A stretch of DNA of 28,081 nt from Pyrinomonadaceae bacterium (lineage in GTDB: Bacteria > Acidobacteriota > Blastocatellia > Pyrinomonadales > Pyrinomonadaceae): contig DATJKO010000231.1 of the NCBI GenBank assembly GCA_035491355.1, positions 1 through 28,081 of the forward strand. The letters are read 5' to 3'. Both the position numbers and the translations under genes were made by a program. Shown here one piece after another: positions 10,504 to 13,707 of the stretch; within the stretch, counting starts at the first letter, position 1; each line of letters opens with the position of its first letter. The notes beneath the pieces are model-generated. The model had not been told where the DNA came from. It saw nothing but the letters and a program-made list of their open reading frames with translations, and ran no database searches.

Positions 10504-10884
10504 TTACCTGGCGGAATAGTCCTCAATCACGTACCGCTTTTTTAACTCCACGAGATTCTGGTCCTCGAACGGGAAGTTGCTACCGGCAACGCCTTTTTTC
10601 TTGTCATCTGTCATAGTGAAATCCACTATTTGCGCCGCCTTCGCTTTCAGGATCACAGTGTCGCTAGCGTCGAATGGCTTGCCATCCTTGCGCGAAAAAA
10701 CCCAAATGTAGGTGAACTGTCCGTTGCGCACGAAGCGCAGCGCTTCCTCGAAATCACTAAGCGGCGTCGATTGTGACGTCGGCAGCGGCGACGGAAGCGG
10801 CGTTTCATTCGCCGTTTGATTCGCTGGACGACCGCACGCAGTCAGAAACAGTGCGAACAGGAGTAGTAACGATTTAGTCTTCAT
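10504..10884 (-). CDS. Hypothetical lipoprotein
   Basis: MKTKSLLLLFALFLTA-C lipobox, then an N/P/S/T-rich tether and a small globular domain; 4-nt overlap with the upstream membrane protein gene. Confidence 0.8.
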   Translation of the reverse strand: MKTKSLLLLFALFLTACGRPANQTANETPLPSPLPTSQSTPLSDFEEALRFVRNGQFTYIWVFSRKDGKPFDASDTVILKAKAAQIVDFTMTDDKKKGVAGSNFPFEDQNLVELKKRYVIEDYSAR

Positions 10885-12539
10885 GGTGAATCGTTAAGAT
10901 CGAGCAGGTCGTCCAGCGGCGCGGCCTTCTCGTCGCGAATATACAGTATTGTGCAATCAACATCCTCGTAGACGATATCAAACCACCCGCTCAGCCGCGC
11001 CTGCTCGGAAAAATCGTGGTGCCCATTGTCGGTAAAGACATACCGCGCGCCAAAACGATCGCGAATCAACGGCCCGGGATCCTCCTGCTGTCCCAGCGTG
11101 ATCCGATCGTATAGCCGCGAGAGGTCCGGGTTCTTCTCGTACAGATAACTCGGATCCAGTCCGGACACATAGTAGTGCGTCGGATCGAAATAGAAGAGTC
11201 GCGGGAAATCATCCCAATCGGTATTGAACACGATCTGTCCCGGCGGAATGTTCGTTCGCATCCATGCGGCGCCCTTCTCGTAACGACTGTGCGGATCGCT
11301 GTTCCCAATTTCTTCCGTTGCGGCCCAGGCATTGAAGAACAGCACGGTGCCCAGGGCCAGGGCCACAACAACCGCGCCAATAAACTTCGATCGCTCCACC
11401 CAGTTAGGCGCGTGCCTGGTTATCGGAGGATCGAGATACGGCTGAAGCTCCTCGAGCACGTCTTCCGGTAAACGAGTCAGATAGGAACGAAAGCCCTGCA
11501 GCCACGGTTGCACCGAAAACGCCGCAAACAGCACGGCAAACGGCGGCCAGTACTCCGTGATTCGCCTCCAGCGCGCCGTCATGATCAGCAACGCCGTCGA
11601 AAACATTAGAAAGAACAACGGATAGTGCGCCCGCCGCCTTTCCGACGCCTCAAACGAAACGTATCCAACCACCATCGCGACACACGCCACCGCCGAGTTT
11701 CCAACAAACTCCCACGTGTCGTACGGATACCATTCCGATCCGACTTTCGTATCGAAGCCCGACATGGTGAGCTTGATCGCCATGTGCTCACCCAACTGGC
11801 GGAAGTTCTGCGGAAAATAAGGATTGATAACCAGGCCCGCCACACAACCGAGAATCACCCAAAGCAGTGGCCGCCACTCAACCCGCCGCTCGGTCAAGGC
11901 GATCACAATGACCCAAATCACGGTGGCGAGTAACAACAGCACAAACAGGTCGTAGGTCCACGTAAAGATCAGCGCCAGCGGTAACAACGGCCAGTATTTC
12001 TTTCTGAAGAACAACGCGGTCGCGATCACCAAATACACGATCGCCAGCGGCGGCGCCTTCGCCATGTTCATCCGAAACAGAAACGGAACAGAACACGCCA
12101 TCAGGCCCACCAGCCACACGAGCACGAAGCGAATTCGGAAATACATCAGCAACCAGTAGCACGAAATCAATGCCAAACTGGCGAAAACTACAGACGCCAC
12201 CTTCGCGCCCTTGCGTGGGTCTGAAAACTCCGCGAACGGAATCTGCATGATGTGAAACAGCAGATGATGGTCGACGTACTCTTTGGAGTTAAGCGTGGTG
12301 AGCGGCAGCCAGGGAAACTGCGGCGGGAACTGACGGCTCTTCATTCCTTCCCACAACGTGCGGGACCACTTGGTGTGATAGTAACCGTCGAAATCGCCGC
12401 AACAGATCGAGTTGGTTGAGAATTGCAGCAGCCAGAACAGGCCCACAATCGCGATGACGCCGGCCAGGAACTGAATGACTCGTAATGTAAATCCGGATTG
12501 CGGGTTTGGTCTGGTGAGTATGCCGGGGCGCGGGGTCAT
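10881..12539 (-). CDS. Polytopic membrane protein, putative GT-C fold glycosyltransferase (STT3/AglB-like architecture)
   Basis: Many hydrophobic helices; first-loop DFDGYYH; soluble C-terminal domain AAWMRTNIPPGQIVFNTDWDDF...RFGARYV. Family assignment is by motif recognition only. Confidence 0.65.
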   Translation of the reverse strand: MTPRPGILTRPNPQSGFTLRVIQFLAGVIAIVGLFWLLQFSTNSICCGDFDGYYHTKWSRTLWEGMKSRQFPPQFPWLPLTTLNSKEYVDHHLLFHIMQIPFAEFSDPRKGAKVASVVFASLALISCYWLLMYFRIRFVLVWLVGLMACSVPFLFRMNMAKAPPLAIVYLVIATALFFRKKYWPLLPLALIFTWTYDLFVLLLLATVIWVIVIALTERRVEWRPLLWVILGCVAGLVINPYFPQNFRQLGEHMAIKLTMSGFDTKVGSEWYPYDTWEFVGNSAVACVAMVVGYVSFEASERRRAHYPLFFLMFSTALLIMTARWRRITEYWPPFAVLFAAFSVQPWLQGFRSYLTRLPEDVLEELQPYLDPPITRHAPNWVERSKFIGAVVVALALGTVLFFNAWAATEEIGNSDPHSRYEKGAAWMRTNIPPGQIVFNTDWDDFPRLFYFDPTHYYVSGLDPSYLYEKNPDLSRLYDRITLGQQEDPGPLIRDRFGARYVFTDNGHHDFSEQARLSGWFDIVYEDVDCTILYIRDEKAAPLDDLLDLNDSP

Positions 12540-12569
12540 CAAACGGTCAACGGCTGGATGTCTGTCGCC

Positions 12570-13070
12570 TCACAGTTGTTCGATCAAATCGAGCAGGGCC
12601 CGGGGATCTATCGGCTTGGTCATGTGTGCATTGAAGCCTGCGTTAGTGGATCGTTCCTTATCGTCAAACATCGAATAGCCGGTGACGGCCACCATCGGTA
12701 CCGTCTGGTAACCTGGAAGCAGTCTCATTTCACGGGCCAACTGGTACCCATTCATCTCCGGCATGCCGATGTCGGAGATCACGACGTCAAACTGGCGCTG
12801 GCGAGCCTCGTCCAGTGCCGCGCGAGCCGAAGCAGCTGTTACGACTTCATAGCCCGCGTGGGTCAACAACACAGCGAGCATCTCGGTGACATCGGCAACG
12901 TCGTCAACAACCAACGCAGATTTGCCTGCATTAGGTTGAATTCGAGCTGTTTGCGTGTCAGGCCGCACCGAGTCAATGCGGTGGTTAGAGTAATCCGACA
13001 GAATCTGGGTGAGATTATAAAGCGAGGGTTCAGCAACAACAGTTCCAGCGCAAGCGCAACTATCTTGCAT
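12570..13070 (-). CDS. Single-domain CheY-like response regulator; true start probably downstream of 13070
   Basis: ALVVDDVAD, VVISDIGMPEMNGY (phospho-Asp), VAVTGY, HMTKPID. Confidence 0.88.
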   Translation of the reverse strand: MQDSCACAGTVVAEPSLYNLTQILSDYSNHRIDSVRPDTQTARIQPNAGKSALVVDDVADVTEMLAVLLTHAGYEVVTAASARAALDEARQRQFDVVISDIGMPEMNGYQLAREMRLLPGYQTVPMVAVTGYSMFDDKERSTNAGFNAHMTKPIDPRALLDLIEQL

Positions 13071-13251: not shown

Positions 13252-13707
13252 ATGGCAGCGAGCAAGGGAAGCAAGAAGTCTAAGGGTGCGCGCAAAGCGG
13301 GACGAAAGGGAGCAAAGAAGAGTGCCGCGAAGTCCAGATCGCGAGGCACTGCCAGGAAGTCGACCAAGAAGGCGGCGAAGAAGGCTGCGAAGAAGGGCGG
13401 GGCTAAGAAGGCCGCAGCGAAAGCGGGACGAAAAGCCGGAAAGAAAGCTGCGAAGAAGGGTATTAAGAAGGCTGCGGCAAAGAAGTCGACCAAGAAGGCT
13501 GGCAAGAAATCAGCCGCTAAATCTGCCGCTAAAAGAGCGGCGAATCAACGAGACCGCGAGTTGAGTCCGCCTGTTCAGGTCGCGCCGGAAACAACTGAAG
13601 CATCTGAGAGCGAAGCGTCCACCGTTGAATCTACCGCCGCAGAGCTCGACAACGCTGGCGCCGAAAGTGCGAGCCTCGGCGACGAAGAAGTAGAAGGATC
13701 CTACTAA
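13252..13707 (+). CDS. Histone H1-like Lys/Ala-rich protein with acidic C-terminal tail
   Basis: SD AAGGAG; about 95 residues of KKAAKK-type repeats, then an E/S/A-rich tail ending GDEEVEGSY. Confidence 0.75.
   Translation: MAASKGSKKSKGARKAGRKGAKKSAAKSRSRGTARKSTKKAAKKAAKKGGAKKAAAKAGRKAGKKAAKKGIKKAAAKKSTKKAGKKSAAKSAAKRAANQRDRELSPPVQVAPETTEASESEASTVESTAAELDNAGAESASLGDEEVEGSY

Follow-up and report, generated by a model that had tools for sequence, protein, structure and literature searches.

A large, unnamed family of STT3-like GT-C glycosyltransferases, paired with a lipoprotein gene in Pyrinomonadaceae

The DNA analysed here (the window) comprises 28,081 nucleotides from a Pyrinomonadaceae bacterium, positions 1 to 28,081 of contig DATJKO010000231.1 (GenBank assembly GCA_035491355.1). 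Its minus strand carries a gene for a polytopic membrane enzyme, followed by an overlapping gene for a small lipoprotein. An earlier note on this DNA described the pair as a candidate protein glycosylation module, with a divergent relative of the oligosaccharyltransferases (OSTs) STT3, AglB and PglB, or another glycosyltransferase of the GT-C class, acting on a co-translated acceptor with tandem N-x-T sequons. The enzyme belongs to a genuine and large family that has no annotation, and the sequon-acceptor part of that first reading is not supported. The features of the enzyme gene are given below; residue counts refer to a family alignment of 41 members that are 26-43% identical to the query, and model confidence is the predicted local distance difference test (pLDDT).

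10881-12542, minus strand: open reading frame (ORF) for the 553-residue polytopic GT-C glycosyltransferase, of an STT3/AglB-like family without annotation
12375-12395, minus strand: DFDGYYH in the first periplasmic loop, with D52 as candidate catalytic Asp (D52, Y55 and H56 in 41/41)
12252-12272, minus strand: family-specific cluster D91-H92-H93-x-L-x-H97 in the first periplasmic loop (H93 and H97 invariant, D91 in 36/41)
12057-12074, minus strand: R157...K162, where OSTs have R147...D154-x-D156 in PglB numbering (R157 in 41/41; residue 162 Arg in 23, Lys in 18)
11733-11735, minus strand: E270 in a V-G-x-E-W loop, aligned to E360 of the TIXE motif of Archaeoglobus fulgidus AglB (E270 and W271 invariant)
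11562-11564, minus strand: R327 in S-R-R-F-x-E-Y, aligned to the Arg of N-R-F-A-Y-Y-F in the same AglB (R327 invariant, E330 in 40/41)
11205-11219, minus strand: DWDDF at the position of the OST motif WWDYG, of which only the second Trp and the Asp are retained
11151-11162, minus strand: family-specific G461-L-D463-P, 18 residues past W443 (G, L and D in 41/41, P in 38/41)
10884-11303, minus strand: predicted periplasmic C-terminal alpha/beta domain of minimal GT-C type, residues 414-553 (modelled in isolation with pLDDT 96.3)

The ORF starts with TTG at 12542; an alternative ATG lies one codon on, at 12539, and the database copy has 552 residues. The stop codon TGA (10883-10881) shares bases with the ATG of the lipoprotein gene (10884-10882), which confirms the ATGA overlap described earlier (10884-10881). 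The protein motifs singled out in the earlier note are likewise present: positions 12395-12375 encode DFDGYYH and positions 11219-11205 encode DWDDF, before which stands the lead-in W-M-R-T-N-I-P-P-G...V-F-N-T, and the C-terminal text runs from AAWMRTNIPPGQIVFNTDWDDF to FGARYV. W443 and F446 of DWDDF are nearly invariant. Given this conservation among relatives so diverged, DFDGYYH and DWDDF are beyond chance. The residues invariant across all 41 members are D52, Y55, H56, H93, H97, R157, P241, E270, W271, R327, G461, L462 and D463.

No family was recognised in the enzyme by Pfam (E ≤ 10) or NCBIfam, and a phmmer search of the PDB returned nothing. The 41 family members match no Pfam family at E ≤ 0.1, the PMT_2 and PMT models (PF13231 and PF02366) match neither the enzyme nor the family members, and the enzyme gene was not among the matches when the whole genome was scanned with the STT3 model (PF02516). 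Relatives are nevertheless plentiful. A word-indexed search returned 3,471, the nearest of which are 68-81% identical, derive from Pyrinomonadaceae metagenome-assembled genomes and have no Pfam domain. An exhaustive search of 50%-identity cluster representatives gave 2,789 clusters at E ≤ 1e-3, of which 620 also pass E ≤ 1e-30. The long members of the family (646-964 residues) contain no recognisable additional Pfam domain, and fusions are hence uninformative.

Among 301 genomes sampled across Acidobacteriota, 65 match the family, about 46 of them at E ≤ 1e-40; the tally includes an unpublished genome (G024) with a weak match only (E 6.5e-4), which is used for no conclusion here. Each of the 16 Pyrinomonadaceae genomes searched, and the window's own genome, has a single strong match, present in one copy in the latter; genome G201 additionally has a weak match (E 3.5e-10). 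Across species genomes, a scan located the enzyme at a minimum of 554 loci, and the best 80 all belong to Pyrinomonadaceae/Blastocatellia. One distant member (28% identical) has relatives whose names assign them to Candidatus Kerfeldbacteria and further Patescibacteria; 'ArnT family' is the automatic annotation of one such relative, and some distant UniProt relatives bear the automatic label 'RgtA/B/C/D-like'. The family is thus large, unnamed and bacterial, and it occurs in Acidobacteriota and Patescibacteria. Four Pyrinomonadaceae genomes (G201, G231, G149 and G137) each hold 10-16 PMT_2 genes above the PF13231 cut-off, with the enzyme gene not among them, and the window's own genome, which is 74% complete, holds 5. 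As a side observation, such a number of PMT_2-type GT-C genes per Pyrinomonadaceae genome amounts to an unusually large periplasmic glycosylation repertoire.

When a profile of the 41-member alignment was searched against the PDB, one protein was matched, A. fulgidus AglB-L (AfAglB; E 2.8e-10, 42.6 bits). The HMMER alignment places V-G-x-E-W of the family on T-I-A-E (E360), S-R-R-F-x-E-Y on N-R-F-A-Y-Y-F, and W-L-x-x-N-T-P-x-G on W-M-R-E-N-T-P-D-G. The last of these bears out the suggestion that a 'W(L/M)R.NTP' segment precedes the WDD motif, since W-(L/M)-x-x-N-T-P aligns with WMRENTP of AfAglB. Separate profiles of the N-terminal and C-terminal parts gave no OST match in the PDB, and homology at the sequence level is therefore established for the central region only.

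The AlphaFold model of the enzyme, built on the family alignment, has a pLDDT of 91.1 and a predicted template modelling score of 0.90, and 11-13 predicted membrane helices can be counted in it. Foldseek ranked STT3 first in the PDB (E 1.5e-9). VIA-align comparisons of the whole enzyme gave Z scores of 27.4 for human STT3A (485 residues aligned, spanning residues 11-538), 26.3 for yeast STT3, 25.3 for PglB and 23.6 for AfAglB. Other GT-C enzymes followed: PMT at 20.6-22.6, aligned in the membrane part only (to residue 415), ArnT at 21.1 (root-mean-square deviation, rmsd, 5.2), and DPY19 at 20-21. The 30 nearest Swiss-Prot models comprise 18 of STT3/AglB, 11 of DPY19 and 1 of ALG12. The notion that this is either a divergent relative of the OSTs or some other GT-C transferase, and that its WDD motif is non-canonical, has thus held up: a GT-C fold was found, OSTs ranked top in the proposed comparison with PglB, AglB, STT3, ArnT and PMT, and STT3/AglB/PglB are nearest by profile as well as by structure. 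That this is an STT3-like GT-C enzyme we regard as almost certain.

The C-terminal 131 residues were also modelled alone and compared with 48,161 PDB chains in an exhaustive VIA search. The best match was the C-terminal domain of AfAglB-S2 (Z 10.1, rmsd 2.3, 109 residues aligned), followed by AftD (9.9), DPY19 (9.8), STT3B (9.3), the C-terminal domain of C. jejuni PglB (9.3) and ArnT (8.4); the first unrelated fold scored 5.4. Foldseek with this domain gave weak E-values, the best OST reaching 4.9e-3. The predicted domain is best described as the generic small periplasmic domain of the GT-C class, closest to the minimal AglB domain. Because the scores of OSTs, AftD, DPY19 and ArnT lie within about 1.7 Z units, the modelled domain by itself would not separate OSTs from the other three.

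Residue numbers of OSTs are those of PMC7226087, and residue equivalence outside the centrally aligned region is positional, taken from sequence and not from coordinates. Three features of the OST active site are retained. D52 lies at the start of the first loop helix in the model and is the positional equivalent of PglB D56 and AglB D47. E270 is, in the HMMER alignment, the counterpart of the TIXE/SVSE Glu of external loop 5 (PglB E319, AglB E360), carried on a loop that is short, with about 44 residues between helices in the enzyme model. PglB R375 and yeast R404 bind the donor phosphate (PMC7226087), and R327 is by alignment their counterpart in the family.

Three other features are altered or missing. 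The second metal motif of OSTs (PglB D154-x-D156, AglB D161-x-H163; PMC7226087) has no DXD, DXE or DXH equivalent, in that residues 92-269 contain no column with Asp or Glu in at least 80% of the 41 members; this count considers sequence position only. Instead, R157-x4-(R/K)162 follows the third helix. At the WWDYG position the family reads (D/N/S)-W-D-D-F (D442 in 28/41, W443 in 38, D444 in 32, D445 as Asp in 30 and Glu in 4, F446 in 39), and the first Trp, the Tyr and the Gly of the OST motif are replaced. The motif can be equated with WWDYG because of its aligned lead-in and its place at a strand-to-helix turn in the model, directly after W-L-x-x-N-T-P. Finally, no conserved D-x-x-K or M-x-x-I pattern of the DK/MI type follows W443 in the 41 sequences, where G-L-D-P is invariant, although the folded protein may have a structural counterpart. 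A further invariant feature new to the family is an I-N-P-Y-F-P turn. The D91-H92-H93-x-L-x-H97 cluster possibly provides a set of metal or substrate ligands, and D91, H93 or H97 could stand in, in three dimensions, for the missing metal-site residues. With three OST features retained and three missing, the enzyme represents a sister family of GT66, a remote homologue of STT3/AglB/PglB and not a canonical OST. The lack of a second DXD and of a DK/MI motif in the sequence argues against canonical N-x-S/T glycosylation.

The gene that overlaps the end of the enzyme gene encodes the lipoprotein, whose features are:

10504-10884, minus strand: 126-residue lipoprotein of no recognised family, with signal peptide and lipobox, overlapping the enzyme stop codon
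10753-10833, minus strand: Ser/Thr/Pro/Asn-rich tether, residues 18-44, in which NQT and NET can be read
10801-10824, minus strand: 12-bp tandem duplication that yields both sequons (11/12 bases identical)
10507-10752, minus strand: folded domain, residues 45-126 (R65, D67, D75 and G101 invariant)

The N-terminus shows weak similarity to lipoprotein signal models, and the lipobox L-T-A-C would mark the protein as a bacterial lipoprotein; its cysteine (Cys17, 10836-10834) is invariant in 24 orthologues. No relatives were found in Pfam, the PDB or the Atlas. The mature N-terminus reads GRPA-NQT-A-NET-PLPSPLPTSQST, and the two tether sequons do arise from a 12-bp duplication, as had been observed: the repeat units GCGAATCAAACG (10824-10813) and GCGAATGAAACG (10812-10801) encode ANQT and ANET. 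All orthologues share the lipobox Cys, a tether of 14-35 residues rich in Pro, Ser, Thr, Ala and Asn, and an 82-residue domain. The tethers of relatives are composed of 20% Pro, 20% Ser, 15% Thr, 11% Ala and 7% Asn.

The pairing of the two genes is conserved in Pyrinomonadaceae/Blastocatellia. A lipoprotein gene lies downstream on the same strand in all 17 loci of family f1 (the 16 genomes searched and the window's own) and in 78 of the 80 species loci; the remaining two loci extend no further than the enzyme gene, so that the count is 78/78 where there is room. No lipoprotein was found in five genomes of families f3, f5 and f36 that are 95-100% complete, despite strong enzyme matches (E 1e-170 to 1e-179), whereas the same search detected it in 5/5 family-f1 genomes used as a positive control. 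A complex prediction of the enzyme with the mature lipoprotein gave a score of 0.00; it had no controls and is counted neither way. The lipoprotein is best regarded as a lineage-specific partner in Pyrinomonadaceae/Blastocatellia that acts either as an accessory factor or as a single dedicated substrate, and it does not define the function of the enzyme.

The sequons behave differently from the gene pairing. The lipoprotein alignment has no conserved sequon column, and 7 of the 16 orthologues in the genome set, read by eye, have no sequon in the tether. At species level, 20 of 51 tethers (one of them, L082, mis-parsed) contain at least one sequon, compared with 15.8 ± 2.7 after shuffling; 96 of 1000 shuffles attain the observed 20, which is thus not significantly raised. 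Among 107 close metagenomic relatives, which are not independent sequences, 63 tethers have a sequon versus 45.4 ± 4.6 shuffled, and the excess is driven by C-N-R-S, an N-x-S directly following the lipidated Cys in many of the near relatives P0274-P0320. The idea of a co-translated acceptor recognised by its sequons has therefore fallen, on the lack of sequon conservation, on the five genomes with the enzyme and no lipoprotein found, and on the absence of the DXD and DK/MI motifs from the sequence. As a separate observation, in two genera (L014-L022) the mature lipoprotein begins C-x-(P/A)-N-(Q/E)-x-I-(L/V)-x-S (alignment columns 71-85); the Asn three residues past the lipidated Cys is retained there, and a sequon is formed in 3 of 9 only.

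The gene context of distant homologues bears on the sugar donor. In the acidobacterial homologues, a Pfam tally of 72 neighbours yielded GT2 and Phosphodiest as the sole recurrent families, with three genes each. The three Phosphodiest genes encode type I phosphodiesterases/nucleotide pyrophosphatases (e.g., L037:831-2522 and neighbours). A GT2 gene is present in the enzyme's strand cluster in four other lineages, namely acidobacterial families f36 and f64, an unplaced metagenome contig, and Patescibacteria. One small ORF separates the GT-C gene from the GT2 gene in family f36, and the order on the unplaced contig is GT-C, GT2, GT87, LPG_synthase_TM. Two Patescibacteria clusters (L138:4842-12400 and the P0483 contig) comprise a PGI-like SIS protein, the GT-C enzyme, GT87, an MptA/B-family GT-C protein and an AglJ-like GT2, to which L138 adds a GT4. 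This co-directional cluster resembles a pathway of the lipomannan or protein-mannan kind in a bacterium of the candidate phyla radiation. Elsewhere in Patescibacteria (L033 and L137), the homologue and a gene for a DUF2079 membrane protein are convergent, and four or five small genes of the T4SS_pilin family lie next to the homologue.

The GT2 proteins match PgfS (8.7e-79), ArnC (2.4e-54 and 8e-27), dolichyl-phosphate hexose transferase, PpgS and AglJ (1.2e-26). The matches cover most or all of the length of every complete copy; the GT2 of family f64 is truncated at the contig end. All of the matched proteins are polyprenyl-monophosphate sugar synthases. The adjacent GT2 genes and the basic residues that occupy the former DXD site jointly favour a polyprenyl-phosphate sugar over a pyrophosphate-linked oligosaccharide, and by analogy with these systems the donor is probably a polyprenyl-monophosphate sugar.

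Comparison with known systems places the enzyme closest to the GT66 OSTs (STT3/AglB/PglB; PF02516), especially AfAglB-L (3WAJ, 5GMY and 7E9S) and the short AglB-S1/S2. Like these, it has the GT-C fold over both parts, a first-loop Asp, a TIXE-type Glu, a phosphate-binding Arg, and W-L-x-x-N-T-P followed by a strand and a W-D turn; its minimal C-terminal domain is like that of AglB-S2. Unlike them, it has no PF02516 match at E ≤ 10, reads R...R/K at the DXD site and (D)WDDF for WWDYG, has no DK/MI found, carries its Glu on a short loop, and has gained the invariant D-H-H-x-L-x-H and G-L-D-P motifs; moreover, the window contains no gene cluster of the pgl/agl type. The DPY19 C-mannosyltransferases (GT98; 7ZLG-7ZLI), which use a polyprenyl-monophosphate sugar and a peptide acceptor, are among the next-best structural neighbours over both domains (Z 20-21; C-terminal domain 9.8). 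However, they are mainly eukaryotic and show no sequence-level match to the enzyme, in which their Trp-x-x-Trp acceptor logic has no visible counterpart.

Three-component periplasmic glycosylation reportedly combines a polyprenyl-phosphate sugar synthase of the GT2 class with a flippase and a GT-C enzyme (ArnC/ArnT, GtrA/B/C, PgfS/PgfM). The enzyme resembles such systems in that homologues in four lineages adjoin an ArnC/AglJ/PgfS-type GT2 and that its size and single small periplasmic domain are ArnT-like, but it falls outside the PMT_2/ArnT sequence family and has no adjacent GT2 or flippase in the window. Mycobacterial Pmt (GT39) O-mannosylates lipoprotein linkers, which makes it a GT-C enzyme acting on Ser/Thr-rich tethers just past the lipidated Cys and a precedent for the pairing of enzyme and lipoprotein. 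PMT aligns with the enzyme in the membrane part only (Z ~22), and the enzyme is without MIR domains.

Building on the observed fold, homology, conserved residues, family size and gene pairing, we favour, with a probability of roughly 0.55, a periplasm-facing STT3-like GT-C enzyme that uses a polyprenyl-phosphate sugar donor, with a protein side chain as the likeliest acceptor and the lipoprotein as a lineage-specific partner. An unlinked GT2 of the ArnC/AglJ/PgfS type would, in the cytoplasm, charge polyprenyl phosphate with the sugar, and the resulting lipid-linked product would be flipped across the membrane to the periplasmic face. There the enzyme may bind the donor phosphate through R157, R/K162 and R327 and move the sugar to an acceptor clamped by D52 of the first loop and E270 of the short TIXE-like loop. 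W443-D444-D445 of the C-terminal domain and G-L-D-P might help to hold the acceptor, which would be recognised by something other than an N-x-S/T sequon. The nearest folds all modify peptides, which counts for a protein acceptor; a protein acceptor of any kind is given somewhat under an even chance, and a glycolipid or polysaccharide acceptor has only slightly lower odds. The fullest version of the favoured reading, a sister family of the N-glycosylating OSTs that modifies proteins including the partner tether, with polyprenyl-monophosphate sugars, a code other than N-x-S/T, an Asp/Glu clamp and no DXD, and that is widespread in soil Acidobacteriota and Patescibacteria, is unlikely.

Several observations weigh against the favoured reading. 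The motifs that are altered or absent (WWDYG, DXD and DK/MI) are those that serve peptide reading and metal binding in OSTs, much of the residue equivalence is positional, and the C-terminal domain fails to discriminate OSTs. The automatic names of relatives (ArnT- and Rgt-like) are those of lipid-glycan enzymes, and the GT87 and MptA/B-type neighbours in Patescibacteria extend glycolipids in known systems. No sugar-pathway gene lies near the enzyme in the window, as the earlier note had already remarked, and neighbour clustering of 20 acidobacterial loci of other families with the window found no gene conserved across families. The donor is deduced from homologues that are 28-37% identical.

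A rival reading is an ArnT-, Rgt- or Aft-like role, in which a glycolipid or polysaccharide (lipopolysaccharide (LPS) core, lipid A, exopolysaccharide or a lipomannan-like polymer) is decorated from a polyprenyl-phosphate sugar with no protein acceptor. We consider this role quite possible, though short of an even chance. The size and layout of the enzyme (about 550 residues with a minimal C-terminal domain) equal those of ArnT, which scores Z 21 over the whole protein and 8.4 over the C-terminal domain, where AftD reaches 9.9; the sequon-reading motifs are lost, relatives carry 'RgtA/B/C/D-like' or 'ArnT family' as automatic names, and the Patescibacteria operon holds GT87, MptA/B-family, GT2 and GT4 genes. 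On the other hand, OSTs are ahead by 2-6 Z units with both domains aligned, AglB is the sole significant sequence match in the PDB, the TIXE-type Glu is retained, and there is no PMT_2 match, although ordinary PMT_2 genes number 10-16 in each of the four genomes counted. To our knowledge, Patescibacteria make no LPS, so a role confined to lipid A or LPS misfits the family as a whole.

Acceptors in the lipoprotein tether have also been considered. Asparagine of the NQT/NET sequons, glycosylated by a divergent N-oligosaccharyltransferase, is very improbable, even though N-glycosylating OSTs are the nearest relatives, D52/E270 preserve the Asp/Glu pair with which OSTs hold the acceptor amide, and the overlapping genes stay paired across the lineage. 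The raised sequon count in 63 of 107 near-relative tethers stems from close kin and shrinks to 20/51 against 15.8 ± 2.7 at species level, no sequon column is aligned, and 7/16 orthologues do without one. Moreover, WWD is cut to W-D, DK/MI and DXD are absent from the sequence, the enzyme occurs in other families with no lipoprotein detected, and the GT2 neighbours elsewhere suggest single-sugar donors rather than oligosaccharides. A Pmt/Pgf-like enzyme that attaches single sugars to exported lipoproteins at Ser/Thr in their low-complexity tethers, with the adjacent lipoprotein as one substrate whose linker is thereby protected, is somewhat easier to reconcile with the data and still improbable. 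It would suit tethers made up of 20% Ser, 15% Thr and 20% Pro, GT2 proteins elsewhere that resemble PgfS of Streptococcus mutans protein O-glycosylation and other polyprenyl-phosphate sugar synthases, the O-mannosylation of lipoprotein linkers by mycobacterial Pmt, and Patescibacteria operons in which GT87 could extend a first mannose. However, tethers rich in Ser, Thr and Pro are commonplace in lipoproteins and give no specific signal, and PMT ranks below the OSTs in Z and aligns in the membrane part only.

Bacterial STT3 homologues have been described as few, of the PglB type and nested within Euryarchaeota (Lombard 2016, PMC4973528), and dark GT-C families near STT3/YfhO are known to exist (Durairaj et al. 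2023). A full-text literature search found no paper on an acidobacterial oligosaccharyltransferase. The family described here, of about 2,800 clusters, keeps one half of the OST active site, with the other half replaced. Action on proteins would mean a new acceptor code and a new toolset for glycoengineering; action on glycolipids would show how the OST scaffold has been re-used. Either way, thousands of 'hypothetical proteins' in soil metagenomes gain a name and testable residues, together with a conserved enzyme-lipoprotein pair.

The other neighbours of the enzyme gene in the window are housekeeping genes, which encode a response regulator, a Lys/Ala-rich protein, an alpha/beta hydrolase, a zinc alcohol dehydrogenase and lipoyl synthase. 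The first of these is the immediate upstream neighbour:

12570-13070, minus strand: receiver-only response regulator gene, 27 nucleotides upstream of the enzyme gene (Pfam Response_reg, E 6.7e-25)

The protein has about 50 extra N-terminal residues and no output domain, and its gene is possibly co-transcribed with the enzyme gene. A homologue lies upstream in five related loci (L007, L009 and L011-L013) and not in other genera of the Pyrinomonadaceae. On the plus strand, at 13252-13707, a 151-residue ORF consists in its first 100 residues almost entirely of Lys/Ala repeats (AKK, KKAA) and ends in an acidic tail; without a Pfam hit, it looks like a histone H1-like nucleoid protein.

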